Shown: positions 4,054 to 61,084, counted from the stretch's first letter. The stretch is DNA of 64,000 bases from Candidatus Zambryskibacteria bacterium RIFCSPLOWO2_02_FULL_51_21 (GCA_001824255.1 MHWQ01000002.1:205446-269445), one strand, 5' to 3'. Notes: generated from the sequence alone by a model not told the origin. Made by a program: numbers and translations.

Positions 4054-4101
4054 ATAGAAAAAGATTATAGCATTTATAGACGCGGAACTGCCGTATCAAT
4101 A

Positions 4102-14614: not shown

Positions 14615-14639
14615 ATGAAGCTATAATACCAGAGAAAAT

Positions 14640-19780: not shown

Positions 19781-19809
19781 TTGACAAAATTATTAAACAG
19801 GTTTATAAT
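19781..19809 (+). promoter_or_regulatory. Consensus sigma70-type promoter TTGACA-N17-TATAAT
   Basis: TTGACA 19781-19786, 17 nt spacer, TATAAT 19804-19809; RBS GAGGTG and ATG 19834 downstream. Confidence 0.65.
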
Positions 19810-19833
19810 TGCAAAAGACTGATAGAGGTGCTT

Positions 19834-20109
19834 ATGCTCGAAAATGGAAAGAAGACTCAACTGAAAAGTGGTGACCTCCTGGTCCTGGAGAAGTCCAGCG
19901 GACGCATCCAGGTCTTGCGTCAAACAGCGTTCCCGGATGAGCGGCTTTTCTGGGATGACGGTGTCAATCCAGACAACAAGAGCCCTTTCGTAGTGGAGGA
20001 AGAGGACTTCTACTCCATAGCTCGAATGCTCGCCAATGTGGTGGGTCTCGGGCTGAGAGAGTACGAACCGGACAACCGACATGCATACGTCGGCTTCAAG
20101 CTCGTCTAG
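19834..20109 (+). CDS. Small hypothetical protein (91 aa), monocistronic, GC3-rich
   Basis: ORF track (19828 alt start; ATG at 19834 after RBS), perfect promoter upstream, terminator downstream. Confidence 0.55.
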   Translation: MLENGKKTQLKSGDLLVLEKSSGRIQVLRQTAFPDERLFWDDGVNPDNKSPFVVEEEDFYSIARMLANVVGLGLREYEPDNRHAYVGFKLV

Positions 20110-20117
20110 ATACGTGC

Positions 20118-20155
20118 ACAAAGGGCGGCTTGCGAGCCGCCCTTTCGATTTTTAT
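20118..20155. terminator. Bidirectional rho-independent terminator between small ORF and rpsI
   Basis: AAAGGGCGGCU-UGCG-AGCCGCCCUUU hairpin flanked by A-run and UUUUUAU. Confidence 0.7.
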
Positions 20156-26914: not shown

Positions 26915-27157
26915 GGAAAGAATATACCATATTTATAAACGAAACGGCCCCTCACCATCGGGTGAAGGGCCAGGGAGCTATGCCAGGACGGAACGTGGCG
27001 AGCCGCGTGACGTAGCGGCCCCAGTCACCCCCGAGTTCCTGCAAGAACCGACGAAGACGATGCAGCCGATAACGAACGGGCGCGCGCCGGATCGTATAGT
27101 CCATGCGGTCTCCTTTGTAATCTTTCCCTATTATCCCACAACCCTACAAATTTGCAA
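26915..27157 (-). promoter_or_regulatory. alaS 5' leader: promoter (TTGCAA-N16-GATAAT) plus about 200 nt GC-rich structured region with alternative antiterminator pairing; candidate T-box-like or attenuator riboswitch
   Basis: -35 at 27152-27157, -10 at 27130-27135 on minus strand; upstream GGGUGA-CU-GGGGCC is complementary to the 5' arm of the terminator. Confidence 0.4.
26933..26971 (-). terminator. Intrinsic terminator/attenuator hairpin in alaS leader, about 20 nt before start codon
   Basis: 11 bp stem GGCCCUUCACC-CGAU-GGUGAGGGGCC followed by GUUUCGUUUAU on minus strand. Confidence 0.55.
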
Positions 27158-29009: not shown

Positions 29010-29021
29010 GAAAATATTATA

Positions 29022-32225: not shown

Positions 32226-33260
32226 CTACACGTTTGAGTAGCGTCCGTCTTTGTCCTTCTTGAAATATTTGGAATTCTGGAGGTTGACGAGGATGGTGTT
32301 CTCTTTGACATAGCGCTCCTTCAAAACTTTTTTGACTATTTCCTCGCGGCTAAGCGGGCCCTCCTTGGCAAGAATACTCTTGATGACATCCTTGACGACG
32401 CCCGACATATAACCCCACTCGGCAAGCGCATAGAGTCCGCGTCCAACGAGAACGAAACGCTTGTCCTTGATAAGCTCGTTGTGCGTGGTGGCGACGTGAG
32501 CCTTCTTGTTGAAATACTGGGTGATGGCCTTAGCCACTTCCTTGAAATGGATGGGCGAACCATGCTTCCTGATAACGAGGAAGGCATAGTCGCGCATACC
32601 CTTGGCATTGACGTTGGGAGAAGAGGCCCGGCCCCATTCGCCGAGAGGATTCTTGCCTATCTTATGCGAAATGCCGAGCCAGCGCTTGATAATCTCATCG
32701 TCCTTATACTTCTCGTTGAGGTCCTTCACCTCCTCGAGGAAAGAGGAAATGAGGTCGCCTTCGACCACGAGCTCGTCATCGGAAAGCTTGGCATAGAGTT
32801 TCCTCAAAGTATTCTGAATCTTATCAGCCAGCTGTTGGTCGACGTGCCAGCGGTGGCGGAATTCTTCGTCCTCCTTATCGCGCTTGAACTCCTCGCCGAT
32901 GATGAGAAGAAAGTGGTAATGATTCTGGGTTGAAGGCTCTTTGGCCAGATGTTTCAAGAGGTCTTTCTCTGACACAATGCCTCCCAACGCCGTGACGATA
33001 TCCTTGAGTTCGGCAAAGACGGCCTCAGCTTCCTTGTAGGACTTCGACTTCCTGATGGCAGCGATGGAATGGTTCTCAATCTGGCGGACGCGCTCGCGGG
33101 TGATGCCGTACTTCTTGCCGATGGCATCGAGAGTGAGCTTCTGAGCCTTGGCGCCCAGGCCGTAGCGAGAAACGATTACGTCCTGGCCGCGCTTGGTGAG
33201 AACCGACAAAAGTTTCTTGGTGGCTTCCTTGGGCTTAAAGCTGGTTGCTATCTTTTCCAT
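32226..33260 (-). CDS. Protein with N-terminal sigma-70 region-4-like HTH followed by about 250 aa uncharacterised domain
   Basis: Region 4 signature (LTLDAIGKKYGITRERVRQIENHSIAAIRK) at N-terminus, not C-terminus. Confidence 0.6.
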   Translation of the reverse strand: MEKIATSFKPKEATKKLLSVLTKRGQDVIVSRYGLGAKAQKLTLDAIGKKYGITRERVRQIENHSIAAIRKSKSYKEAEAVFAELKDIVTALGGIVSEKDLLKHLAKEPSTQNHYHFLLIIGEEFKRDKEDEEFRHRWHVDQQLADKIQNTLRKLYAKLSDDELVVEGDLISSFLEEVKDLNEKYKDDEIIKRWLGISHKIGKNPLGEWGRASSPNVNAKGMRDYAFLVIRKHGSPIHFKEVAKAITQYFNKKAHVATTHNELIKDKRFVLVGRGLYALAEWGYMSGVVKDVIKSILAKEGPLSREEIVKKVLKERYVKENTILVNLQNSKYFKKDKDGRYSNV

Positions 33261-33281
33261 TTGATTGTGTTATTTCTATCA

Positions 33282-33302
33282 CTTGACACCTCTAGTGTCA
33301 AG
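33282..33302. promoter_or_regulatory. Perfect palindrome CTTGACAC-CTCTA-GTGTCAAG between leuS stop and the sigma-region-4 gene start; putative operator overlapping a -35-like TTGACA
   Basis: 8 nt inverted repeat arms with 5 nt spacer, 20 nt upstream of the ATG at 33260. Confidence 0.45.
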
Positions 33303-33307
33303 CATCA

Positions 33308-36067
33308 TCAAGAAGTCACGATATTTACCAGTTTTCTAGGGACATAAATCCTATTCTTGACTGCCTTATCCCCAACCCACTTTTGCGTTTCGGGGAGATT
33401 CTCTGCAAGCTCGAAAGCTTCCGCCTCATCGAGCGCTCTCAGCGCTTCGAATTTGCCGCGCACGCGGCCGTTGACCTGAACCACAATTGTAACAACTTCG
33501 CTCACAAGCTTCGTTTCATCGTACCCGGGCCAGCTCTGTGAATGAATTGAATCGCTGTGTCCGAGCGAGTGCCACAACTCTTCCGCCATATGCGGCGCGA
33601 ATGGTGCTAAGAGCTTTAGTAATGTTTCGTATTCTTCTTTGGAGATTTTCTCTTTCTTCTCCAAATCATTTACAAAAATCATCAGGGTTGAAATCGCAGT
33701 ATTGAAACGCATGTGCTCGATATCGCCGGTCACCTTTTTTATCGTTTGATGAGCGGAAGATGAAACTTCATCGAGCGAAGTCTGGCCATGCTTGCCGGAG
33801 GCAACATCCGAAGACTTTGTGAGAGGAAGTTTCGTCTGAAGTCTCCATATTTTCTCCAAAAATCTCCGCGGCCCGACCAGAGAACTCTCACTCCAGGCAA
33901 TTGCCTGTTCGAAGGGGCCCATGAACATCTCGTAGAGGCGCAGAGTGTCGGCGCCGAAACGTTCAACGATAGAATCGGGATTTATGACATTGCCTTTCGA
34001 CTTACTCATCTTCTCTCCCCCTTCGGCCAAGATAAGCCCGTGAGAAGTGCGCTTCTTGTAGGGTTCACTTACGGGCACAAGGCCTATGTCATATAGAAAC
34101 TTATTCCAGAAACGGGAATAGAGAAGATGAAGAACTGTGTGCTCCATACCGCCGTTGTACCAGTCCACGGGCATGAAATATTTGAAATTTTCAATTTGCA
34201 ATTTCCAATTTTCAGTAGAAACCGGATTCTCAAATCCTTTCTTATCGAATAGGTAGGCGAGAAAATACCAGGAGGAGCCGGCCCAATTGGGCATAGTATC
34301 TGTCTCGCGCTTGGCAGGACCGTCGCATTTCGGGCAAGTTATATTGACCCACTCATCTATCGCCGCGAGCGGCGACTCGCCGGTGTCGGTGGGCATATAA
34401 TTCTTTACCTCTGGGAGAAGGACCGGCAAATCTTTCTCCGGCACGGGCACTATGCCGCATTTATCGCAGTGCACAACCGGAATCGGTTCACCCCAGTATC
34501 TCTGCCTCGAGAAAACCCAATCACGAAGTTTGTATTTGACGACCTTCTTGCCGAATTTCTCCGTAATTTTCTCTCTGGCTTCTCCCGATTCAAGACCATC
34601 GAATTCATTGGAATTCGCAATGATTCCTTCTCCTGTATAGAAATCTTTGCCAGTCTCAATACGCTGTCTGATAATTTCTATTTCCGAGTGATTTATACGA
34701 ATAGTTTTGAATTCCTCTTTGGATATCCATTCGACTTCATGCTTTTCAAGCTCTTCTTCTGTTACGGTTTGACGGGCATTACTCTTTAATTCAAAAAACA
34801 GCAAGACATCATGAGCGATGCGATTAACTCCTTTATGAGCTGCATAAAATTCCGCTTGAGTATCCCCGCCAAGCCTTCTAATTAATTCGATATCTGTGTA
34901 TCCGGTTTCTTCCGTTATTTCTCTCTTGGCCGATTCTACGGCATTCTCTCCTTCTTCTATGCCTCCTGTTACAAAAGTTCTCCATGGAACTTTTTTCCAT
35001 TTCAGAGTGAGATACTTCTCCGTTTTTGGATCATAAACAATGCTTAAGGTGACTTTTCGCGCCACAATATCTTTGCCGTTTTGATGCGGATTGGTGGAAT
35101 CCGGCAGGCGCGGCGTTATCACGTGCTTAATCGGCAAATCGTGCTTCTTGGCGAACTCATAGTCGCGCTCGTCGTGCGCGGGCACCCCCATAATGGCTCC
35201 GGTGCCGTAGTCGAAGTAAACATATTCCGCTTCCCAGACGGGAATTTTTTCCCTGGTCGCGGGATTAATTGCGTAATCTCCAGTAAATTTGTCTTCTTTA
35301 CCCGCCTTGACCAAGAAAGTAGCACCGAAGATTGTGTCCGGCCGAGTCGTGAATACTTCTATATCATCAAATTTGATAAGCGCGCCTTCCGACTTCCCTA
35401 TCCAGTTCTTCTGCTGAACTTTGACCCGCTCCGGATAATCCACGGTGTCGAGGTCAGCCAGAAGTTTGTCGGCATACTTAGTGATGGCGAGCATCCATTG
35501 CTCTTTTTCCCGCTGTTCCACCGGCGTGCCACAGCGCTCGCACTTGCCGTCCACCACTTCTTCGTTGGCGAGGCCAATCTTATCCTTCGGACACCAGTTG
35601 ATGGGAATCTTCGCCTTGTACGCGAGTCCATGCTCAAGAAACTTCAAGAAGAGCCATTGAGTCCATTTGTAATACTTGGGGTCAGTCGTGTTAATCTCGC
35701 GCGACCAGTCGAAGGAGATGCCGAGCGACTGAATCTGCCTGCGAAAAGTGTCTGTGTTTTCCTTCGTAATTTCTGCGGGCGGACGGCCTGTTTTGATAGC
35801 GTAATTCTCCGTCGGCAAACCGAAAGCGTCCCAGCCGATGGGATAGAGTACATTCTTGCCTTCCATCCTTTTCTTCCTCGCAATGATATCCATGCCGATG
35901 TACGGGCGAGGATGTCCCACATGAAGACCGTCTCCGGATGGATACGGAAATTCTATAAGCGCGTAATATTTTTGCTTAGAAGAATTATCTTCTGCATTGT
36001 ATAGGCCATCTTTCTCCCATTCCTTCTGCCACTTAGACTCTATCTGTTTCGGGTCGTATTCTGTCAT
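33308..36067 (-). CDS. leuS: Leucine--tRNA ligase with reduced CP1/editing region and an inserted Nudix hydrolase domain
   Basis: HVGH and KMSKS motifs; TTRPDT...GTGA spacing only about 45 aa; canonical Nudix box GGIEEGENAVESAKREITEETGY at aa 368-390. Confidence 0.85.
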   Translation of the reverse strand: MTEYDPKQIESKWQKEWEKDGLYNAEDNSSKQKYYALIEFPYPSGDGLHVGHPRPYIGMDIIARKKRMEGKNVLYPIGWDAFGLPTENYAIKTGRPPAEITKENTDTFRRQIQSLGISFDWSREINTTDPKYYKWTQWLFLKFLEHGLAYKAKIPINWCPKDKIGLANEEVVDGKCERCGTPVEQREKEQWMLAITKYADKLLADLDTVDYPERVKVQQKNWIGKSEGALIKFDDIEVFTTRPDTIFGATFLVKAGKEDKFTGDYAINPATREKIPVWEAEYVYFDYGTGAIMGVPAHDERDYEFAKKHDLPIKHVITPRLPDSTNPHQNGKDIVARKVTLSIVYDPKTEKYLTLKWKKVPWRTFVTGGIEEGENAVESAKREITEETGYTDIELIRRLGGDTQAEFYAAHKGVNRIAHDVLLFFELKSNARQTVTEEELEKHEVEWISKEEFKTIRINHSEIEIIRQRIETGKDFYTGEGIIANSNEFDGLESGEAREKITEKFGKKVVKYKLRDWVFSRQRYWGEPIPVVHCDKCGIVPVPEKDLPVLLPEVKNYMPTDTGESPLAAIDEWVNITCPKCDGPAKRETDTMPNWAGSSWYFLAYLFDKKGFENPVSTENWKLQIENFKYFMPVDWYNGGMEHTVLHLLYSRFWNKFLYDIGLVPVSEPYKKRTSHGLILAEGGEKMSKSKGNVINPDSIVERFGADTLRLYEMFMGPFEQAIAWSESSLVGPRRFLEKIWRLQTKLPLTKSSDVASGKHGQTSLDEVSSSAHQTIKKVTGDIEHMRFNTAISTLMIFVNDLEKKEKISKEEYETLLKLLAPFAPHMAEELWHSLGHSDSIHSQSWPGYDETKLVSEVVTIVVQVNGRVRGKFEALRALDEAEAFELAENLPETQKWVGDKAVKNRIYVPRKLVNIVTS

Positions 36068-36596: not shown

Positions 36597-36619
36597 ATAG
36601 CTATTCTAGCAGAATTGAG

Positions 36620-37462: not shown

Positions 37463-37500
37463 CCGAAACAAAACAAAAGCGCCACGATGTTCCGTGGCGC
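37463..37500 (-). terminator. Rho-independent terminator after small ORF 37521-37769
   Basis: GCGCCACG-GAACAU-CGUGGCGC hairpin followed by UUUUGUUUUGUUU on minus strand. Confidence 0.65.
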
Positions 37501-37520
37501 CCTGCTTCGTGAATGGGTAA

Positions 37521-37769
37521 CTAAAGTCCAGTCACCCAGGCGCGCTCGAACCACTCACCCGCAAGATCCTGCCTCGTCCCGTTTGGAACTTCGACAGTTA
37601 CCATGTAGGGAGCGACCGACGGCTTGCCGATGTCGCTGGTCCAGAGTCTGAGACCGACCACTTTGAATGGCCCTTCTCCATACCTCTGGATCATGTCGGG
37701 CAGGATAGATGGGTAGACCTCTCGATCCCACACCACCATTTCGCCCAACTTCAGGTCGTTCAGCACCAT
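37521..37769 (-). CDS. Small hypothetical protein (82 aa), monocistronic, GC3-rich
   Basis: RBS GGAGGT 4 nt before ATG 37769; own promoter and terminator; ORF-track alt start rejected. Confidence 0.6.
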   Translation of the reverse strand: MVLNDLKLGEMVVWDREVYPSILPDMIQRYGEGPFKVVGLRLWTSDIGKPSVAPYMVTVEVPNGTRQDLAGEWFERAWVTGL

Positions 37770-37786
37770 GTGTACCTCCAATTACT

Positions 37787-37815
37787 ATCTTAGCACAAAG
37801 TGCTTGATTTGTCAA
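37787..37815 (-). promoter_or_regulatory. Promoter TTGACA-N17-TAAGAT with extended -10 (TGCTAAGATAGTA)
   Basis: -35 37810-37815, -10 37787-37792 on minus strand; same 13 nt motif TGCTAAGATAGTA as promoter at 54061. Confidence 0.55.
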
Positions 37816-37848: not shown

Positions 37849-37873
37849 GAGGCCCCGCAAAATGCGGGGCCTG
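37849..37873 (-). terminator. Hairpin GGCCCCGC-AAAAU-GCGGGGCC after ORF 37880-38137 (weak U tract)
   Basis: 8 bp GC stem immediately 3' of stop codon. Confidence 0.4.
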
Positions 37874-37879
37874 ATTCCG

Positions 37880-38137
37880 TTACTGTATGTGCTGGATGAA
37901 CAGAAGCGAAGGGTCTTCCGGCTGGGGAAGCGCGACGAGCTTCCGCATACCGAGAGCGGAGTCGAGCGAGTCGAGCATCTGGTCCAGGGTGTAAGACTCG
38001 CCTTCCTCCTCTCCCGCGAACTTTACCCTCACAAGTTCGCCGGCACCTGGCAAGAATGCATCCAGCCAGTATTTCTTCTCCTTCTTACCGTTCTCCGAGC
38101 ACGAAACGACAATTAACTGCCCAGCCTGGAATTCCAT
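37880..38137 (-). CDS. Small hypothetical acidic protein (85 aa)
   Basis: ORF track; GC3-rich coding signal; last gene of exonuclease/flavodoxin operon. Confidence 0.55.
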   Translation of the reverse strand: MEFQAGQLIVVSCSENGKKEKKYWLDAFLPGAGELVRVKFAGEEEGESYTLDQMLDSLDSALGMRKLVALPQPEDPSLLFIQHIQ

Positions 38138-38164
38138 ATTTCCTCCACTGCAAGGCGTAAAGGT

Positions 38165-39664: not shown

Positions 39665-39705
39665 TGCTACTAGCTTACAGCTTTTAGCTTATAGCTTCTA
39701 GCGAT

Positions 39706-39732
39706 TTGACACACACGTAAAAATATTATAAT
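39706..39732 (+). promoter_or_regulatory. Promoter TTGACA-N15-TATAAT for small ORF 39759
   Basis: TTGACA 39706-39711, TATAAT 39727-39732, RBS GGGAG 8 nt before ATG. Confidence 0.5.
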
Positions 39733-39758
39733 TTATCCAACGGAAGGGAGCTGAATCC

Positions 39759-40064
39759 ATGGCTGAAGAAAAGCGTCCGTGCCACGAAGTCCTCTCGTCA
39801 ATGCTCAGTTTGATGGCTAACAATGCCTACAACGAGAAAGACGAGGTGAAAACCGTCCTCATCGTACTGCAGCAGAGCAGGTTCAAGGCTGCCGATGCCC
39901 ACAAGATCGCCGAAGATCACGCTGGGCTGCCTGGCATGCTGAGATCCATCCGCATGAGTGGTCTCGCCGAGTTCGCCGAGGAAGTCCTCGCCGACCTGCG
40001 CGGCCGCAAGGACGAGAAGAAGCCGGGGGTCAGCGCGGCGACGGCTTCAAACGTCGACGGATAG
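39759..40064 (+). CDS. Small hypothetical protein (101 aa), monocistronic, GC3-rich
   Basis: Promoter, RBS and strong terminator. Confidence 0.6.
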   Translation: MAEEKRPCHEVLSSMLSLMANNAYNEKDEVKTVLIVLQQSRFKAADAHKIAEDHAGLPGMLRSIRMSGLAEFAEEVLADLRGRKDEKKPGVSAATASNVDG

Positions 40065-40075
40065 GTCGAGGTCCC

Positions 40076-40120
40076 GAGCCCGCGAAGAGCCTGCGCTCTT
40101 CGCGGGCTCTTCTATTTTTG
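40076..40120 (+). terminator. Rho-independent terminator
   Basis: 15 bp stem GAGCCCGCGAAGAGC-CUGC-GCUCUUCGCGGGCUC then UUCUAUUUUUG. Confidence 0.75.
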
Positions 40121-40933: not shown

Positions 40934-41025
40934 TTACTTAATTATCTATGGTATAATCCCCTTGTCCAGCCGGAGAGACTTCTTAGGCCGGTATTAGGGA
41001 CTTAATTACCAATTACATTTAAATT

Positions 41026-41283
41026 ATGGCAAGAACTGCGAATCCGGCACTCCTTAGGCCCATGACCCTGTCTTCGGAACTCGAGGCAGTAGTGGGCAAA
41101 GGACCGATGCCCAGGGGCCAAGTGGTGAAGAAGATGTGGGAGTACATCAAGAAGAACGACCTCCAGAATCCTTCCAACAAGAGGAACATCTTCTCTGATG
41201 AGAAGCTTAAGCCCATCTTCGGCGGCAAGAGCGAAGTGACGATGTTTGAGATGACCAAGCTTGCTTCCGGACACATGAAGTAA
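41026..41283 (+). CDS. SWIB/MDM2 domain protein (85 aa)
   Basis: SWIB-like conserved pattern (..VVKKMWEYIKKNDLQNP..KR.I..DEKLK.IFG...V.MFEM.KL...H); extended -10 TGGTATAAT at 40949-40957. Confidence 0.6.
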   Translation: MARTANPALLRPMTLSSELEAVVGKGPMPRGQVVKKMWEYIKKNDLQNPSNKRNIFSDEKLKPIFGGKSEVTMFEMTKLASGHMK

Positions 41284-41310
41284 TTCGGGCTTGGGTCTGA
41301 GAGGAGAAAA

Positions 41311-41346
41311 CCAGCCCCGCCGCTCTGCGGCGGGGCTGGTTTTGAT
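41311..41346 (+). terminator. Rho-independent terminator after SWIB gene
   Basis: 13 bp GC-rich stem CCAGCCCCGCCGC...GCGGCGGGGCUGG followed by UUUUGAU. Confidence 0.75.
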
Positions 41347-41381
41347 AAAGAACGGCATCAGGTAGATTCTTTTTATCACAC

Positions 41382-41411
41382 TTGACATAGTGTCCTTTTT
41401 TGTATTAAGAT
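41382..41411 (+). promoter_or_regulatory. Promoter TTGACA-N18-TAAGAT upstream of sulfatase-like gene
   Basis: TTGACA 41382-41387; TAAGAT 41406-41411; partial inverted repeat GACA-TAG-TGTC overlaps the -35. Confidence 0.45.
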
Positions 41412-41491
41412 AATGAATAGAAGTTCGTTGGAATTCAGCACGCCAAGCCCAAACTTGGCCCACACAACCCCACACAGGAAGAAGGTAGACA

Positions 41492-43186
41492 ATGCGGAAA
41501 AGACTTGGATTCGCCGTGCTGGTCGCTATTCTCACGGGGGCCATCCTAACCCCCGCTCAGACGAAATCGAATGTCGTCGTCATCATGGCGGACGACATTC
41601 CCATGAGCGACATCACCACCATGGTGGCTCAAAGCCAGCTCCCCAACATCAAGGGGCTACTGGACACCGGAATCGAGTTCACCCAAGCCATTTCTAGCGG
41701 CTCGGTCGGCTCGACGGCGCGCATCTCTGTCCTCACAGGACAATACGCGCAGAACCACAAGGAGTTTGGAGCGGACCTCTTCTACGGAGGCCCGGTCCGA
41801 CACAACGAGGCGACCCTCTTGCCAAACTGGCTGCGGCCCGCCGGCTATATTACCGCGAAGGTCGGACGCACCATCCCAGGCTACGGCGCTGGTGATCTCA
41901 CCACTGAAGAGCTCCAGGGAATCGCCGCAATGCATCCGACCGTGACAGCTGAGCAGCTTCGTCTGTTCTACTCCACTTTCCCGAAGTGTTCGTACATGCC
42001 GCCGGGTTGGTCCATTTGGTTCGTTTTTTGCGAGCCGTGGACCTGGAGCGTCCACAAGTACAAGGCCTCTATCAGCGGGACCAAGATGGACTTCAGTTCA
42101 TACAACACCCCGGTGGAAAGGTGGCACCAGACCGACTTCGTAGCTGATGTCGGAGACTGGTTCATCAGGACAGCCGCAACTTTGGGAGCACCATGGTTTC
42201 TGGAGCTCGCTCCAGTCGCCTACAACCGCGAGTTATGGCCCGGGCCGGACGTTTACAACGTCTGTCCGGACCCCACGCAGCCACAAGCATGGTGGTACGG
42301 TGGACGATACTCGGGCGTCTCAGAAAGGCCGCCACTGCGCCACATAAACACCATCTGGAACGCGAATGACCCGAACGGCGTGGCACTAGCGTCGCTCGAC
42401 TTCTCGTTCCCCACGCCACCCTCATTCGACGAAGAGGATGTTTCAGACAAACCCACGTGGGTTCAGAACCTCCCGAGAATCTCTGCAGAGGACTTCGATT
42501 GCCTCCAGAAACGTTACTGGCGCCGGCTCGAGACGGTCAAGTCCATCGACGACCTGGTGGGCAAGGTGATGAAGGCGCTCGCGGAGACGGGCCAGCTCGA
42601 CAACACTTACGTGGTGTTCATGGCCGACAACGGAAACAACGACGGCCATCACCGCTACAACGAGAAGCTGTCGGCGTATGAGAATTCCCTACGGATCCCC
42701 CTCATCATCCGGCGGCCAGGCACGACTACTCCGGTCAAAGTGGACAAGCTGGTGCTGGGCGTCGATATCGCCCCGACCATCGCGGCCATCGCTGGAGCTA
42801 CGCCGAATATCGTGGTGGATGGCAGGTCTCTCCTGCCACTCATGGACAACCCCAGTTTGCCTTGGCGCAAGATGGGGCTCATCCAGCACACGCTCGGTGT
42901 CTGGGACGCAGGGGAAGCCACTACTGCTCCCCGTGAGTACTACGGGCTCCGGATCGGCAACGGTAACCCGCGCTTGTTCCTGAACTACCCCAAGGTGCAA
43001 ACCGGCGTCCGAGGGGAGTACTACAAGATGGCGACGGACCCGTATCAGCTCAATAACCTGTACGGGATGGCGACCACGGAGATAACCAACATCTCCCCAT
43101 GGCTCAACGCCATGAAGGTGTGTAGGGGCAACAACCCCACCACCGTGGGAAGCTGTGCGTGGTTGGAGAACAACTTCAACCGCTGA
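41492..43186 (+). CDS. Secreted sulfatase-fold hydrolase (alkaline phosphatase superfamily); canonical C/S-x-P-x-R formylglycine motif not evident
   Basis: Signal peptide, VVVIMADD metal-binding start, ...GSTARISVLTGQY where sulfatases have CxPxR...LTGRY; GC about 58-60%, GC3-rich. Confidence 0.65.
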   Translation: MRKRLGFAVLVAILTGAILTPAQTKSNVVVIMADDIPMSDITTMVAQSQLPNIKGLLDTGIEFTQAISSGSVGSTARISVLTGQYAQNHKEFGADLFYGGPVRHNEATLLPNWLRPAGYITAKVGRTIPGYGAGDLTTEELQGIAAMHPTVTAEQLRLFYSTFPKCSYMPPGWSIWFVFCEPWTWSVHKYKASISGTKMDFSSYNTPVERWHQTDFVADVGDWFIRTAATLGAPWFLELAPVAYNRELWPGPDVYNVCPDPTQPQAWWYGGRYSGVSERPPLRHINTIWNANDPNGVALASLDFSFPTPPSFDEEDVSDKPTWVQNLPRISAEDFDCLQKRYWRRLETVKSIDDLVGKVMKALAETGQLDNTYVVFMADNGNNDGHHRYNEKLSAYENSLRIPLIIRRPGTTTPVKVDKLVLGVDIAPTIAAIAGATPNIVVDGRSLLPLMDNPSLPWRKMGLIQHTLGVWDAGEATTAPREYYGLRIGNGNPRLFLNYPKVQTGVRGEYYKMATDPYQLNNLYGMATTEITNISPWLNAMKVCRGNNPTTVGSCAWLENNFNR

Positions 43187-43195
43187 AGACCATTC

Positions 43196-43252
43196 GCAAG
43201 GCGTGTCATGACTCTGCTTTCGCAGAAGCATGACACGCCTTGATTTATTTTG
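43196..43252 (+). terminator. Rho-independent terminator after sulfatase-like gene
   Basis: AAGGCGUGUCAUG...CAUGACACGCCUU stem with structured loop, then AUUUAUUUUGG. Confidence 0.7.
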
Positions 43253-43905: not shown

Positions 43906-43928
43906 TGACCCACTATATCATCGAAATA

Positions 43929-44355: not shown

Positions 44356-44410
44356 ATTTGCGGCTTTATTTTGCTTCATTTTTAAGATAGAATCAAGTTC
44401 GTTACTTTTC

Positions 44411-44435
44411 AAAAATGAGCCCCCGGCTCATTTTT
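44411..44435. terminator. Bidirectional terminator-like element AAAAA-UGAGCC-CCC-GGCUCA-UUUUU abutting tRNA-Ala(TGC) 5' end
   Basis: 6 bp stem, 3 nt loop, symmetric A and T runs. Confidence 0.5.
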
Positions 44436-44807: not shown

Positions 44808-45794
44808 TTGTATATGAAAAATATAATACTCATAGGATTTATTATTTTAACTCTCGGACTGTCTAGTATTGGCCACGCGGCTACCACTCCTACCTTATCG
44901 GACAGTTCGACGTATGCGATTCTTTCCAGTACCTATACCGATACGTCTGGCGCAACGACAATCAATGGAGACGTCGGCTTCACCACTCCCCCGGCAACCC
45001 CGCCACTTGGCACACAAACGAATTATGGAAGTGGAGCGCCATACTCTGTGGCTGGTACTGACCAAGCGGCCGTATTAGCTCTCTTGAATGCCCAGCCGTG
45101 CGATTTTACCTTCGGGGCTGCCACTGATTTGAGCCTGGAGACCCAGCCTCTCCAGCCGGGTGTTTATTGCATTACGGGAGCGCAATCTGTTGGGACAGCA
45201 GGGATCACATTGCTTTCTGGAACGTATATATTTAGATCAACGGGTGCTCTCAATACAGTGGCGAACTCCGTGGTTTCTGGTGGTAATGCCTGCGATGTTT
45301 TCTGGACACCAACGGCTACCACATTGGGAGCCAACTCTACTTTTTTCGGAACAGTGATTGATGACGCTGGAATCACAGTCGGAGCCGTAACTACATGGCT
45401 TGGCCGGGCGCTTGCTTTTGGGGGCACGGTTACGACAGACACTAATACCATCACAGTGCCTAATTGTGCTCCTGTGGTCCCCACACCACCCTCGCCTCCA
45501 GTCCCAACCCCTTCTTCTGGCTCATCGCATTCTGGAGGAACGAAGAGATGTGATACTTCTACCACACTTAGTTGCGAAGAATATTTCAGAAGCCCGGCAG
45601 TTAGCCCAGCAGTAAGTACGGTAGTTGCGGTACCTGAAGTGCTTGGAGTTTCAGTGTCTCCATATTCATATCCGACTCCATCGATGCCTAGTACAGGAGG
45701 GAGTCGTGATTACATGATCCATCTACTTCAACTTGCGAGCATTCTAATTGTTTCTGGAGGACTATCAATGTTCGTAGCAAGAAAAAGTAGATAA
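44808..45794 (+). CDS. Secreted DUF3494 (ice-binding-like beta-helix) family protein with C-terminal sortase-type sorting signal (MPSTGG-TM-RKSR)
   Basis: Signal peptide; N-terminal ...YAILSSTYTDTSGATTINGDVGFTTP... and C-terminal ...GRALAFGGTVTTDTNTITVP resemble DUF3494; Pro/Ser-rich stalk; lower GC about 45%. Confidence 0.5.
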   Translation: MYMKNIILIGFIILTLGLSSIGHAATTPTLSDSSTYAILSSTYTDTSGATTINGDVGFTTPPATPPLGTQTNYGSGAPYSVAGTDQAAVLALLNAQPCDFTFGAATDLSLETQPLQPGVYCITGAQSVGTAGITLLSGTYIFRSTGALNTVANSVVSGGNACDVFWTPTATTLGANSTFFGTVIDDAGITVGAVTTWLGRALAFGGTVTTDTNTITVPNCAPVVPTPPSPPVPTPSSGSSHSGGTKRCDTSTTLSCEEYFRSPAVSPAVSTVVAVPEVLGVSVSPYSYPTPSMPSTGGSRDYMIHLLQLASILIVSGGLSMFVARKSR

Positions 45795-46046
45795 TACATT
45801 TTGAAAATAAAATAATAGCCTCGGGCTGAAGACAAAAGGTTTTACATTGTTCCCGTAGGGCTCCACCCCTTGAGTGCTTTCTATAATCTGTTAATGTAAG
45901 AGCTAGAGTTTGCCCCGAGAGGAGGGGCCCACATGGGAGGCGGCCTCCTCTCGGAGGCGCCACGGCGCAGAACGGAAGAGTGGGATCGCCAGATCCCGCT
46001 TACTTCGCGCCGAAGCGCCCGATGTCGCACCCGCTCCCATTACACC

Positions 46047-46086
46047 GAGCCGGCCAGGCGATCCTGGCCGGCTTTTTCTATTTCTT
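46047..46086 (+). terminator. Rho-independent terminator in 45795-46094 intergenic region
   Basis: AGCCGGCCAGG-CGAU-CCUGGCCGGCU then UUUUUCUAUUUCUUC. Confidence 0.6.
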
Positions 46087-47279: not shown

Positions 47280-47291
47280 ACTAATATTATA

Positions 47292-48491
47292 TCAAATCCT
47301 GAATCCTTTGTTCCTCAAAAGACGGTGATAATTTATGGCGAAGCGGTGCGCTTCGGAGTTCGCTAGGAGAATCTCTTTTTCTTTTGTTTCTTGCTTCTTG
47401 ATTCTTGCTTCTTGCCAAAGTATGGCTCTGGCCCTATGCCTTTCATCCTTCACTACAGACACAACCCCAATCATTTCGAGGCCCATCTTGTCGAGTTCGG
47501 AGCGGGCGGCATTGAGTTGCCCCTTGCCGCCGTCCACCACAACCAGGTTCGGGAAACGCCATTCCGGATGGCCGAATCGCCTGGAGATTATTTCCCTGAG
47601 ATTCTTCGTATCATCGTTCTTATCCTCACGAATTTTGAACTTCCTATACTGGCTCTTGTTCACTTCCCCATCCTCAACGACAGTCATTACTCCCACGGCA
47701 TTTGTGCCGGAAATATGCGCAATGTCGTATGCCTCAATACGAAAACTGGGTGTTAAGGACTTGGTGCTAGGTGCTAGGTCTTGCTTTATTAACACAACAT
47801 CATGAATATGCTGTAGGGCAAAAATCTGCCTTTTCGCAATCTCTGCGTTCTCGAACTCATGCTTTTTCGCATAAGATTTCATTTCCCTCTCGAGAGATTT
47901 TATGAGAGTTTCCTTCTTGCCTTCAAAAAATAATTTTATCTTTCTGATTTGCTTCCGGTAGTCAGTCTTCGAAATCTTGCCGGCACACGGGCCGGGACAG
48001 AGGCCGATCTGCGCGTTGAAACAAGGTTTGCCCGAGAGTTTGCACCTGTCATCGCGATACGGGAAAATTTTCCGAATAATTTTCAAAGCTTCCTTCAATT
48101 CTCCAGAATGCGGAAATGGGCCGTACGTGCCCGAGCCTCTTGTGATTACCACTTTCGGAAACTCCTCTCTCGTAACTGTAACGAAGTTGTAGCTCTTGTC
48201 ATCCTTCTCGCGCGAGTTGTATATGGGCTGATGCTTCTTAATCTCATTGGCTTCGAGAATTAAAGCTTCCAGTACTGAATCAGTCTGCGCATACTCGACT
48301 GATTCTGCTTCTTCGAGCATCTTCACTATTTTCGGCCCGCGGGATAGGAAAATATCTTTCGAAAAATAGCTCCTCACCCTGTCGGCAAGCGAAGTGGCCT
48401 TGCCGATATACAGAATCCCCTTCCCCTTCTTGAAGAAATAGACCCCGGGCGCATCAGGGAGATTGAACTTTTTTAGCTCTTGACTTTTCAT
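47292..48491 (-). CDS. uvrC: Excinuclease ABC subunit C, short form (GIY-YIG, Cys-rich/UvrB-binding, RNase H-like endonuclease domain; no C-terminal HhH)
   Basis: GIY-YIG (GVYFFK...ILYIGKA), only 399 aa. Confidence 0.8.
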   Translation of the reverse strand: MKSQELKKFNLPDAPGVYFFKKGKGILYIGKATSLADRVRSYFSKDIFLSRGPKIVKMLEEAESVEYAQTDSVLEALILEANEIKKHQPIYNSREKDDKSYNFVTVTREEFPKVVITRGSGTYGPFPHSGELKEALKIIRKIFPYRDDRCKLSGKPCFNAQIGLCPGPCAGKISKTDYRKQIRKIKLFFEGKKETLIKSLEREMKSYAKKHEFENAEIAKRQIFALQHIHDVVLIKQDLAPSTKSLTPSFRIEAYDIAHISGTNAVGVMTVVEDGEVNKSQYRKFKIREDKNDDTKNLREIISRRFGHPEWRFPNLVVVDGGKGQLNAARSELDKMGLEMIGVVSVVKDERHRARAILWQEARIKKQETKEKEILLANSEAHRFAINYHRLLRNKGFRI

Positions 48492-48524
48492 TTTATAGTT
48501 GTATTATAGTACTTGGAGGTTTCC

Positions 48525-48743
48525 ATGTTCATAACTGTAGACATTCTGTACCTGAAGAACAAGAAAACGGTTCCTGCCCCCGCCGGCTTCCCGAGCCAGG
48601 TGACGGTCGAGCTGGCGGATGCCAGACAGCTCACAGACAAGGTGGTCGAGGAAGCGGTGTGCCGCCGCCTCGCCTACCACAACATCACCGCCCGGCAGGG
48701 AGTTGGAGCGGTGGAATTCGGGTACATCCCCGTAGACCGCTAG
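48525..48743 (+). CDS. Small hypothetical protein (72 aa), GC3-rich, between uvrC and uvrA on opposite strand
   Basis: RBS GGAGGT 4 nt before ATG 48525, -10 TATAGT upstream, terminator downstream; ORF-track TTG start rejected. Confidence 0.45.
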   Translation: MFITVDILYLKNKKTVPAPAGFPSQVTVELADARQLTDKVVEEAVCRRLAYHNITARQGVGAVEFGYIPVDR

Positions 48744-48750
48744 TGCCCTC

Positions 48751-48789
48751 AAGGCCGCCCATGTTGGGCGGCCTTAATTTATTTCTTCC
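48751..48789. terminator. Terminator hairpin shared by small ORF (+) and uvrA (-)
   Basis: AAGGCCGCCC-AUGUU-GGGCGGCCUU followed by AAUUUAUUUCUUCC on + strand. Confidence 0.65.
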
Positions 48790-51393: not shown

Positions 51394-51972
51394 TTACTTT
51401 TTCTCGCGCTCAAACCTGAGCACACTACCTGTAAAGTTCTTACCTGAGTCCTCAAAGCAGACTTCATAATCAACAGAATATTTTTCTGCTTCAGGAATAT
51501 GATTCTTTTTTATAAACCGGAATTCTCGAATCAGTCCCGTTGATTTCTTGAGAGGACAATCCTTAAGATGTTCCACGAGGTATTTTGCAAACATGAGCCA
51601 AGGAGGAATATTTGTTATATCGGAAGGAAGCCCAAACTGCTCAAGCATATTGTAGAGATTCCCCCTTAGATCTCCAAGAGAGAAGAACTGGTGATTGAAA
51701 TCTGAGTGATGAAATTTATCTTCAGGATGCTCAATGATAAATTTCTCCATTTCTTCCAGTGTTCCTCTGGCAAATTCCTTATTAGTGAGATTTGTGTGCA
51801 CAGCCCAATTGCACCAATGTTTAACTCTATCCCATTCAGGAAGACTGCTTCCATTTTCTTCTTCCATTTTATCTACCAGTCTTCTCAACTCGACCATTAT
51901 GTACACGACTCGCTCTTTTTCGATTGGTTTTTGTAAGGCTGACCTTAAGTTTTCTATTATTTCTTGTCTCAT
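51394..51972 (-). CDS. Hypothetical protein (192 aa), AT-rich (about 38% GC), start overlaps uvrB stop (TAATG)
   Basis: ORF track; strong compositional contrast with flanking uvrA/uvrB; His/Cys/Trp-containing, no recognisable domain. Confidence 0.6.
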   Translation of the reverse strand: MRQEIIENLRSALQKPIEKERVVYIMVELRRLVDKMEEENGSSLPEWDRVKHWCNWAVHTNLTNKEFARGTLEEMEKFIIEHPEDKFHHSDFNHQFFSLGDLRGNLYNMLEQFGLPSDITNIPPWLMFAKYLVEHLKDCPLKKSTGLIREFRFIKKNHIPEAEKYSVDYEVCFEDSGKNFTGSVLRFEREKK

Positions 51973-54040: not shown

Positions 54041-54069
54041 CTTGACAAATATACTATAGTATGCTAAGA
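54041..54069 (+). promoter_or_regulatory. Promoter TTGACA-N17-TAAGAT with extended -10 (TGCTAAGATAGTA)
   Basis: TTGACA 54041-54046, TAAGAT 54064-54069; 13 nt identical to promoter at 37787-37799. Confidence 0.55.
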
Positions 54070-54099
54070 TAGTACAAGACTCCCCCAGGAGACGGGACA

Positions 54100-54243
54100 T
54101 GAAGAGCATCGCGGGACTTCTCGGATTTCTGGTGTTCATGGTCATCATGGTCGTACTTGCCGGCAACTGGATCGAGGCAAGAAAGGCCGCGATGAGCAAG
54201 TGCACCGACACCCGAGCCCAGCTCGGACTCTGCGTGAAGTAAG
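54100..54243 (+). CDS. Small membrane protein (47 aa; below ORF-track cut-off)
   Basis: Manual translation MKSIAGLLGFLVFMVIMVVLAGNWIEARKAAMSKCTDTRAQLGLCVK; RBS AGGAGA, promoter upstream, strong terminator downstream; GC3-rich. Confidence 0.45.
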
Positions 54244-54245
54244 AC

Positions 54246-54280
54246 GAAGGCGGCCTCATCGGAGGCCGCCTTTTTGTTTG
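54246..54280 (+). terminator. Rho-independent terminator
   Basis: AAGGCGGCCUC-AUCG-GAGGCCGCCUU then UUUUGUUUGG. Confidence 0.75.
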
Positions 54281-54293
54281 GCAGGGTGCACAG

Positions 54294-54476
54294 TCAGATG
54301 CGACGGTCGGTGTAGCCGTGCGGATTGCGGACGAAATACGGTCCGCGTTCGCTCCGGGTTTTCTCTGAATCCGGGTGGCCGAGGCCGTAGCGCTCGGCGA
54401 GGTCGTCGTCATTGGGTTCTGGGCCAACGGCGTCGTGCTGCGGCTTCTCTTCATCAGACCGGGTCTTCTCACTCAT
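54294..54476 (-). CDS. Small acidic hypothetical protein (60 aa)
   Basis: RBS AGGGAGGG 5 nt before internal ATG of ORF 54294-54590. Confidence 0.4.
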   Translation of the reverse strand: MSEKTRSDEEKPQHDAVGPEPNDDDLAERYGLGHPDSEKTRSERGPYFVRNPHGYTDRRI

Positions 54477-54531
54477 ACACCCTCCCTGTTGCAGACAGAA
54501 CGAGATTTTGAAACGCCTTTGGATAAAGTTA

Positions 54532-56744: not shown

Positions 56745-56768
56745 TTGCCCACATGATACTATAACTAT

Positions 56769-60391: not shown

Positions 60392-60467
60392 AACTTAAGT
60401 ATATCAAATGATGATAATTGAAAGAGGCGGACCACATGTGGTCCGCCCCGTTCACACTTCCAAGCGG

Positions 60468-60947
60468 TTAACGAATGGCCGCCAGCCGAACCTTCTCGCC
60501 GGCGATCTCCGCATCGAACTCGCTTGACTCCATCATCATCTTGACGGCGGAGCTGTAGTACTTGCCCGCCTGCGCGAGCGCGAGGACCCGGTCGAGGCGC
60601 TTGTTGACGTCCTCCATCGACGCGCCAGCTCTTCGAGCATCCTCGAGCATCGGCAGAAAACTGTCGGAGTACGAGCCGATGAACCGCACTTCCCGCCCGG
60701 CCTCCACGAGATCGAGGTTGTTGTCGATAAGGGTGAAGGCCATCTGCGGATTCTTCTCGACCACCGCCGCAAATCGGTTTTCGTTCTCGTACACCCGGCT
60801 CGCGAGGTCATGATGGCGATCCTCGAGACCGCTGATTATCTCGCCCGCCTCTTGTGCCCGCTTCTCAAGCTGATGCACCCGATAGAGAAGCGTGACGTTC
60901 GACACGATGAGTCCTAGGATAACGATGCCGAGCAACACTTTCTTCAT
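60468..60947 (-). CDS. Hypothetical membrane-anchored protein
   Basis: ORF track; N-terminal TM then helical domain. Confidence 0.55.
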   Translation of the reverse strand: MKKVLLGIVILGLIVSNVTLLYRVHQLEKRAQEAGEIISGLEDRHHDLASRVYENENRFAAVVEKNPQMAFTLIDNNLDLVEAGREVRFIGSYSDSFLPMLEDARRAGASMEDVNKRLDRVLALAQAGKYYSSAVKMMMESSEFDAEIAGEKVRLAAIR

Positions 60948-61084
60948 CTGGAAATCCTCTCTGAAGAAAAGGGTTTGTGTGCCCTGTTTCTAATCCTTTT
61001 CCATCCTAGCATATTTATACTTAAATGTCAAGTATAATATGCTTCCTCAATATAAATTAAACTCTTGTTGAGCTATTTTTAGGC

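Follow-up and report, generated by a model that had tools for sequence, protein, structure and literature searches.

What two promoters that share TTGACA, a 17-nt spacer and an identical 13-mer, TGCTAAGATAGTA, stand for is the question raised by a 64,000-nt stretch of DNA (MHWQ01000002.1:205446-269445; the whole stretch is referred to as the window) from a 'Candidatus Zambryskibacteria' metagenome-assembled genome (MAG), a member of the Candidate Phyla Radiation (CPR)/Parcubacteria from groundwater in the Rifle aquifer data set. A preliminary description of the window had proposed that such promoters drive dispersed small genes that are GC-rich at third codon positions (GC3) and that these genes form either a distinct regulon or a class of acquired cassettes between operons. 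Our results make it probable that they are autonomous monocistronic cassettes that were inserted between core genes, have consensus core elements and are shielded by terminators. The claim of a distinct class holds up, as the genes are led by Shine-Dalgarno (SD) sequences, have full -35/-10 promoters and, at three sites, separate housekeeping genes that are adjacent at sister loci.

The window contains mainly housekeeping genes, nearly all on the (-) strand, including grpE-dnaK-dnaJ, several aminoacyl-tRNA synthetase (aaRS) genes, an S13-S11-S4-rpoA-L17-L13-S9 block, infA, mreB-tgt-uvrB-uvrA-uvrC-ddl, hpf and vanY; a look-up for the 570-aa protein encoded at 62113-63825 on its right-hand side returned no record. 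It was compared with 80 loci of relatives obtained by a UvrB scan (53-80% identity), of which the nearest sister contig is L023 (UvrB 80% identical), and ~9.4 kb of new sequence from the left-hand flank in the same genome (locus L103) provided an independent test set. Motif counts cover the window, the L103 flank and the 80 loci, and the null for enrichment was dinucleotide shuffling (n=100).

Both promoters with the 13-mer were found as described, one at 37815-37783 on the (-) strand (TTGACA 37815-37810, N17, TGCTAAGATAGTA 37795-37783) and the other at 54042-54074 on the (+) strand (TTGACA 54042-54047, N17, TGCTAAGATAGTA 54062-54074), and they also have TTGACAAAT in common. TTGACA-N18-TAAGAT at 41382-41411 and TTGACA-N17-TATAAT at 19781-19809 likewise agree with the preliminary description. 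At 39706, which had been listed as a related consensus promoter, TTGACA is real, TATAAT lies at 15 nt, and the hexamer at 17 nt is TAATTT. The 47-aa open reading frame (ORF) that had been placed at 54100-54243 actually occupies 54099-54242, and an extra promoter beyond those described, TTGACA-N17 with TGCTAGGAT at 61031-61003 on the (-) strand, was found upstream of a 159-aa gene. The cassettes and the two copies of the 13-mer are as follows.

37476-37815, (-) strand: p82 cassette; -35 at 37815-37810, TGCTAAGAT at 37795-37787, SD GGAGG at 37779-37775, 82-aa ORF at 37769-37521, terminator at 37503-37476
37783-37795, (-) strand: copy 1 of the 13-mer TGCTAAGATAGTA; a TGn-extended -10 (TAAGAT) plus a 4-nt discriminator
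54042-54273, (+) strand: p47 cassette; -35 at 54042-54047, 13-mer at 54062-54074, SD AGGAGA at 54087-54092, 47-aa ORF with an N-terminal transmembrane (TM) helix at 54099-54242, bidirectional terminator at 54246-54273
54062-54074, (+) strand: copy 2 of the 13-mer TGCTAAGATAGTA; the orthologous site in L021 reads TGCTATGATGGAC
19781-20153, (+) strand: p91 cassette; TTGACA-N17-TATAAT at 19781-19809, SD GAGG at 19825-19828, 91-aa ORF at 19834-20109, terminator at 20120-20153
39706-40119, (+) strand: p101 cassette; TTGACA at 39706-39711 with TAATTT at 17 nt and TATAAT at 15 nt, SD GGGAG at 39746-39750, 101-aa ORF at 39759-40064, terminator at 40076-40119
41382-43251, (+) strand: sulfatase-family gene; TTGACA-N18-TAAGAT at 41382-41411, 80-nt leader, weak SD at 41477-41485, ORF at 41492-43186 (Pfam Sulfatase, 3.6e-31), terminator at ~43197-43251
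48480-48785, (+) strand: p72 cassette; TTGACT-N16-TATTAT at 48480-48507, SD GGAGG at 48515-48519, 72-aa ORF at 48525-48743, antisense to the flanking uvrA and uvrC, bidirectional terminator at 48751-48785
60418-61031, (-) strand: p159 cassette; TTGACA at 61031-61026, TGCTAGGAT at 61011-61003, SD GAGAGGA at 60961-60955, 159-aa ORF with an N-terminal TM helix at 60947-60468, terminator at 60449-60418

The preliminary description had allowed that the motif might occur at random frequency. TTGACW-N16-18-TANNNT is found seven times in the window against 1.28 +/- 1.07 times in shuffles, none of the 100 shuffles reaching seven, and all seven sites are intergenic and lie directly upstream of p91, p82, p101, the sulfatase gene, p72, p47 and p159. 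Six of the sites have a perfect -35 (TTGACA, 6/6), and that at 48480 has TTGACT. Those at 37815, 54042 and 61031 combine a 17-nt spacer with TGCTAAGAT or TGCTAGGAT; in the remaining four, no TG precedes the -10. TTGACA-N14-TGCTARGAT has three matches in the window against none expected. Transcription would be expected to start ~7 nt past these -10 elements. Every named gene ends in a hairpin followed by a T-run (folding free energy -20 to -42 kcal/mol), in agreement with the strong intrinsic terminators that had been described.

Two of these promoters adjoin other features. The p72 promoter (-10 TATTAT, (+) strand) faces that of uvrC (TACTATAAT, (-) strand) and occupies the same bases at 48480-48511, with the p72 -35 falling within the initial uvrC codons. 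Between the divergently oriented RNase T operon and p101, ~5 units of 7 nt (AGCTTnn) are found at 39666-39700, which on the (-) strand form tandem -10-like hexamers, TAAGCT/TAAAGCT.

The cassettes differ from the native genes around them in how both transcription and translation are signaled. The native genes, including those for ribosomal proteins, dnaK, rpoA and aaRS, are essentially all without SD, and their promoters mostly have no recognizable -35 and are thus of the -35-independent extended -10 type. In at least 12 of them, TGnTAnnnT or TAnnnT ends exactly 6-8 nt before ATG, a spacing that would imply leaderless mRNAs. An SD is present before p91, p82, p101, p72, p47 and p159, is weak before the sulfatase gene, and also precedes three other small ORFans.

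37850-38146, (-) strand: p85; 85-aa ORFan at 38137-37880, SD GGAGG at 38146-38142, terminator at 37872-37850; SD-led and without a consensus -35, it closes the RNase T/flavodoxin operon
54294-54486, (-) strand: p60; 60-aa ORF at 54294-54476, SD GGGAGGG at 54486-54480; convergent with p47, located after tgt, with no promoter of its own, and part of the p47 block that is missing from sister genomes
26952-27157, (-) strand: possible further member; TTGCAA at 27157-27152, 16 nt, GATAAT with an upstream TG (TGGGATAAT, 27138-27130), SD AGGAG at 27114-27110, 50-aa ORF at 27104-26952 with no family match

By a strict 5-mer definition of SD, for which the 30 nt before every start codon were listed, 7 of the 65 called genes are SD+. 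A full -35/-10 promoter precedes 6/7 of these and 1/58 of the SD- genes (Fisher p=6e-7); the median lengths of the two classes are 85 and 284 aa, and their GC3 excesses +0.12 and +0.02, respectively. The cassette genes are mostly on the (+) strand (6/8), compared with 4/60 native genes (p=5e-5). A SWIB/DM2 gene was tried as a member of the class and rejected: contrary to the preliminary description, which had put it within the shared architecture, it lacks both an SD and a good -35, though it is GC3-rich.

40949-41350, (+) strand: SWIB/DM2 gene at 41026-41283; extended -10 only (TGGTATAAT, 40949-40957), terminator at 41307-41350

The same division is found outside the window. In a set of 31 SD-poor relatives' loci (445 called genes), shorter length again marks the SD+ genes (150 vs 269 aa, p=9e-5), and 18% of them follow a full-consensus promoter against 3% of the others (odds ratio 7.2, p=2.5e-4). 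In L103, two of three additional full-consensus promoters are upstream of SD-led ORFs without Pfam match (125 and ~70 aa; GC3 0.73 and 0.76), the former with a terminator of -31.6 kcal/mol, while its L27, CysRS, DnaB and S41 peptidase genes are SD-less with the -10 at 6-8 nt.

Examples of extended -10 sites of native genes in the window that end 6-8 nt before ATG are located at 4060-4068, 14619-14627, 26917-26925, 29012-29020, 36599-36607, 43908-43916, 47282-47290 and 60394-60402 on the (-) strand and at 56754-56762 on the (+) strand. The pattern of a -10 just before ATG includes internal genes of long operons, which would imply pervasive leaderless transcription and many internal promoters; a literature search found no paper on pervasive leaderless transcription in Parcubacteria.

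Both the small proteins and their signals are maintained where orthologues could be found. Homologues were sought across protein databases for p82, p47 and p91 only, and relatives of p72, p101 and p159 in 90%-identity clusters and the 80 relatives' loci. For p82, five detectable homologues with 66-82% identity were found among 5.8 billion proteins; p47 has one, of 87% identity, in locus L021; and for p91, 1.84 billion representatives contain two remote ones of equal length, with identities of 41% and 31%, so that the three families searched are ORFans with 1-5 detectable homologues each. The ratio of nonsynonymous to synonymous divergence (dN/dS) is 0.08 for p82 (dS 1.06) and 0.16 for p47 (dS 0.64), which points to purifying selection and supplies the coding signature on which the preliminary description had made its claim depend; the codon scores of the small ORFs are also like those of native genes. 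The p82 orthologue in L018 reads TTGACAAGTCAAGTTGTTTA-TGCTAAGATAGTA-AATGGAGGTGAGCATG and that in L020 reads TTGACATTATAGTGTTTGCG-TGCTAAGATTAGA...AGGAGGTGCAATATG. Both retain the -35, the spacing, TGCTAAGAT and the SD, with the spacer diverged at dS ~1.06, and the 13-mer is kept at 13/13 positions in L018 and TGCTAAGAT at 9/9 in L020. The p47 orthologue in L021 retains TTGACAAAT, the 17-nt spacing, TGCTAnGAT, AGGAGA and the terminator stem, whose loop is changed, and its 13-mer, TGCTATGATGGAC, matches at 9/13 positions. That the SD is kept in diverged orthologues argues that it is used. The p82 orthologues are located in unrelated neighborhoods, each with its own promoter, SD and terminator.

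No small protein matches Pfam, PHROGs, PADLOC or NCBIfam, and none resembles another. AlphaFold models are weak (predicted local distance difference test, pLDDT, 62 for p82 and 54 for p101) with no fold assignable, the best E-value in Foldseek against the PDB is 0.4, which gives an SH3/Tudor-like hint only, and scans of IMG/VR with p82 and p101 produced no viral-contig match. As for p47, a 47-aa TM peptide, a scan for the overlapping antisense promoter-like site of a type I toxin found none. Beside the p82 orthologue in L018 (495-2091), two genes without Pfam match are GC3-rich (0.67 and 0.71 vs ~0.5 for the rest), and one of the two is read divergently from a TTGACT-N17 promoter, which shares bases with the p82-type -35 (TTGACAAGTCAA, palindromic).

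Comparison with sister genomes indicates where the cassettes came to lie. The (mreB-)tgt-uvrB-uvrA-uvrC-ddl order on one strand is widely conserved in the relatives' loci. In L023 the gaps are 16 nt for tgt|uvrB, 98 nt for uvrB|uvrA and 17 nt for vanY|hpf, and in the window these are filled with p60 and p47, a 192-aa low-GC3 gene and p159, respectively. Adjacent tgt|uvrB is also found in L033, L042, L047 and L048, and p60 is missing there and in L023. Similarly, uvrA|uvrC are 4-62 nt apart in seven relatives, and in the window p72 lies between them. Because adjacency of both pairs recurs in relatives, the parsimonious interpretation of p60/p47 and p72 would be insertion in the window's lineage. 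On presence and absence in sister genomes, a check the preliminary description had named, no detectable relative of p47, p60, p72 or p159 was found in the 80 syntenic loci, nor does any ORF in the equivalent slots of relatives resemble p47, p60, p72 or the 192-aa protein (all E>0.3). The uvrA|uvrC slot holds other units elsewhere: in L023, TTGACA-N16 with TGATATAAT, the SD AAGGAGGG, an unrelated 196-aa ORF and a terminator; and in L055, on the opposite strand as in the window, TTGACA-N18-TAAGAT, AGGAGG, an 88-aa ORF and a terminator. The slot thus behaves as a hotspot.

The 192-aa protein is encoded by an ORFan at 51394-51972 on the (-) strand with a GC3 of 0.37, between uvrB and uvrA, a pair that is adjacent in L023, L024 and several others. 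The uvrB stop and the start of this ORF overlap. It is preceded by neither a promoter nor an SD and is an insertion of a second, compositionally opposite kind. The region 12925-16763 of L103 contains a tyrosine recombinase gene (Phage_integrase family), at a distance of 13 kb from the window, with an SD-led orotidine monophosphate decarboxylase gene (GC3 0.80) and three small genes without Pfam match, with strong terminators, as its neighbors; this region may be a small island of cassette-type genes.

Based on these results, we propose that each cassette would be read from a near-consensus promoter of the housekeeping sigma factor (TTGACA, 17 +/- 1 bp, TAnnnT often TGn-extended), through a short leader with a canonical SD (GGAGG, AGGAG or GAGG) 6-9 nt before ATG, into a GC3-rich ORF for a small lineage-restricted protein and then a strong, often bidirectional intrinsic terminator. 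In most cases the units would be antisense to their surroundings, separating housekeeping genes that stand side by side in relatives, a location by which they behave as inserted, insulated units. The grammar of the host genes would be an extended -10 without -35, a start at or near ATG (leaderless) and no SD. Since every promoter and translation element is at consensus, expression of the cassettes is predicted to be strong and activator-independent.

Several points weigh against this proposal. The polarity of insertion is available at three sites only, one of which, that of p159, has a single comparator (L023), and a sister locus is lacking for p82, p91, p101 and the sulfatase gene. In many relatives the fillers of such slots are without consensus promoters, so not every inserted gene is of the cassette type. 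Neither target-site duplications nor terminal repeats flank the cassettes, no mobility gene lies beside those in the window and no donor was found; of the word 'acquired' in the preliminary description, insertion relative to relatives at three sites therefore stands, and a donor or a mechanism of mobility does not. No promoter module is shared, as the cassettes are alike at consensus positions only. The GC3 excess is not general across the 31 SD-poor relatives' loci, and the relative synonymous codon usage (RSCU) of the cassettes correlates with that of native genes at r=0.71 against a null of 0.84 +/- 0.08 (7th percentile), a difference that is modest and, as a sign of foreign origin, marginal. 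No retrieved locus contains a 16S rRNA gene from which the anti-SD could be read, and about half of Parcubacteria have been reported to be without an anti-SD motif (PMC9297842).

The main alternative is that the cassettes are native, vertically inherited and very highly expressed small genes, whose signals reflect selection for expression and which were lost or diverged elsewhere. The GC3 of the eight genes is 0.66-0.78 (median 0.76) and that of 52 other genes has a median of 0.65 (interquartile range 0.61-0.69, maximum 0.73; Mann-Whitney p=7e-6), so the reported GC3 richness is genuine, though moderate and not marked; the sulfatase gene, with a GC3 of 0.76, has a codon usage at the 2.5th percentile of native subsets. 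The native genes nearest to the cassette codon pattern are L17 and S4, which are also the only native genes for which the cassette codon model gives a better fit than the native one. In relatives, too, high expression goes with higher GC3: hpf has 0.61 against ~0.42 in L023, and L35 has 0.60 against 0.41-0.50 in L019. At dS ~1, the p82 orthologues are each GC3-richer than their neighbors, including those in two lower-GC genomes, which argues for maintained selection and not for un-ameliorated foreign DNA, and no donor lineage or phage relative was found. Given the modest codon distinctness and the proximity of L17 and S4, the GC3 signal is compatible with expression-linked bias, foreign origin or both. 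What tells against vertical inheritance is that adjacency of tgt|uvrB and of uvrA|uvrC is the ancestral state in several independent relatives, that unrelated cassettes occupy the same slot in three genomes, and that the p82 orthologues have no common synteny. Moreover, both SD and -35 are missing from the genes for DnaK and the ribosomal proteins, whose expression is surely high, and in the cassettes G-ending as well as C-ending codons are in excess, with AGC, CTG and CGG raised relative to the highly expressed set. We regard this alternative as unlikely.

A dedicated regulon, in which a regulator or sigma factor would co-regulate p82, p47 and p159 through TGCTAAGATAGTA or TGCTArGAT placed 17 nt from TTGACA, appears very improbable. 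The 13-mer consists of TG (extended -10), one free base, the -10 TAAGAT and four discriminator bases. Given the 18 intergenic TGnTAnnnT sites, 0.025 identical pairs of 13-mers are expected, which speaks for a regulon; but near-identical pairs also occur among ordinary promoters at these sites (one of 12/13, four of 11/13), and the choice of the identical pair was post hoc, so that 13/13 identity by itself is weak evidence. The three occurrences of TTGACA-N14-TGCTARGAT with none expected, and the retention of 13/13 positions in L018 at dS ~1 (estimated p ~1e-3 for the 8 non-canonical positions), are in its favor as well, as is the fact that TAAGAT is found again in the sulfatase promoter (41406), in that of a tRNA-Ala gene (44383) and in two L055 cassettes. 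However, all conserved positions belong to the sigma-70 -35, extended -10 or -10. In the p47 orthologue, where the site reads TGCTATGATGGAC (9/13), four of the eight free positions have changed, roughly the neutral expectation. The other cassettes have TATAAT, TATTAT or TAATTT, TAnGAT is not significantly enriched (4/7 cassettes vs 2/14 native promoters), no palindrome or direct repeat of operator type is present, and the motif is missing from relatives except orthologues. A scan of 596 Gb of species-representative genomes, a collection without the source MAG, retrieved the exact architecture five times, in unrelated taxa and at chance level. Full-consensus promoters have diverse -10 hexamers across 1.09 Mb from relatives. 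In the genome studied here, TAAGAT is one of several -10 variants and is also used by the tRNA-Ala gene and by a native promoter (12152). The decay in the p47 orthologue, the rarity elsewhere and the diversity of the -10 together lead us to reject a regulon defined by this motif, with a low residual probability that TGCTArGAT marks a subset; in our reading, the exact identity is a coincidence on top of a shared consensus and marks no operator and no alternative-sigma motif. The tRNA-Ala(TGC) gene, which stands alone at 44356-44435, has a -10 region, TTTTAAGATAGAA, with TAAGATAG in common with both 13-mers, and three tRNA-Ala genes (CGC, GGC and TGC) lie within 1.3 kb.

That the motifs are chance matches in AT-rich spacers and the small ORFs not genes, for which it can be said that ~100 shared 13-mer pairs are expected by estimate in 64 kb on both strands, is barely credible given the enrichment of consensus sites in the window, the conservation of promoter, SD and terminator in orthologues, dN/dS far below 1 and an L021 terminator whose stem is kept while its loop differs.

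The autonomous, inserted cassettes that we favor are closest to phage morons, a concept of Juhala/Hendrix (2000), whose definition is taken here as quoted in PMC2920897. As far as that quotation goes, they are moron-like in being located between genes adjacent in relatives (tgt|uvrB, uvrA|uvrC and vanY|hpf), in having their own promoter and terminator and a base composition unlike that of their neighbors, and in the hotspot with different units at uvrA|uvrC in the window, L023 and L055. They are unlike morons in residing on a CPR chromosome with uvrABC, tgt, mreB, ribosomal, dnaK and aaRS genes as flanks, in having no PHROGs or IMG/VR match, and in differing from the host in translation signal (SD vs leaderless), which goes beyond the concept as quoted. 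With every feature but the phage context shared, the units work like morons without being morons.

Their promoters resemble sigma-70/sigma-A extended -10 promoters (TTGACA, 17-bp spacer, TGnTAnnnT) and are in themselves ordinary; what is unusual is that two promoter types in one genome are split between accessory and native genes. In SD-poor Bacteroidota, few genes have a strong SD, as in the autoregulation of rpsU. Here, too, most genes are without SD and a small minority has a strong SD kept in orthologues, but that minority consists of ORFan cassettes and not of a ribosomal protein gene. Integron cassettes are likewise small, variable, single-ORF accessory units; they are promoterless, end in attC and are arrayed by intI with a common Pc, whereas the units here have their own promoters, are dispersed over 41 kb and have 3' perfect GC stems with T-runs, i.e., terminators. 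An integron nature is not supported, given these promoters, the dispersal, the terminators and the lack of shared repeats.

More tentatively, and with some doubt on our part, small accessory genes may circulate as plug-and-play chromosomal morons in SD-poor, largely leaderless Parcubacteria, each bringing its own universal set of expression signals (consensus -35/-10, SD and terminator) and reusing the same junctions, so that two grammars would coexist and SD initiation would be effectively reserved for flexible, possibly host-interaction, genes. CPR bacteria have tiny genomes with many small unknown proteins, and both their gene expression and the entry of genes are poorly understood. If the division found here is genome-wide, a rule based on sequence only (full -35/-10, SD and terminator vs extended -10 and leaderless start) would tell the core genome from a flexible set of ORFans with probably high expression, mark p82, p47, p72, p91, p101 and p159 for proteomic or functional study, and make testable the survival of SD initiation where core genes have abandoned SD. 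A gene caller that assumes only one type of start will err on one class or the other, an example being p47, which is without an NCBI source; the gene is recorded in JGI, ENA and Logan calls and is probably unannotated in the GenBank record.

Some other features of the window were noted. The gene at 32226-33260 on the (-) strand encodes sigma-70 region 4 and HARE-HTH and is preceded by the perfect palindrome TTGACAC-TAGAG-GTGTCAA (33262-33300), which overlaps its -35 and looks like a putative operator for autoregulation. A GC-rich, highly self-complementary stretch at 45900-46080 (GAGAGGAGGGGCC...GGCGGCCTCCTCTCGGAGGCGCC), with no Rfam match and no convincing ORF, is followed by a terminator at 46047-46074. 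The Pfam matches of the leucyl-tRNA synthetase encoded at 33308-36067 on the (-) strand include NUDIX between tRNA-synt_1 segments, which would be an unusual insertion. At 44814-45794 on the (+) strand, an ice-binding-like surface protein (PF11999, 3e-17) with a signal peptide is encoded by a gene of atypical composition (GC3 0.40), and its C-terminus, with PSTGG, a hydrophobic segment and an RKSR tail, resembles a sortase signal.

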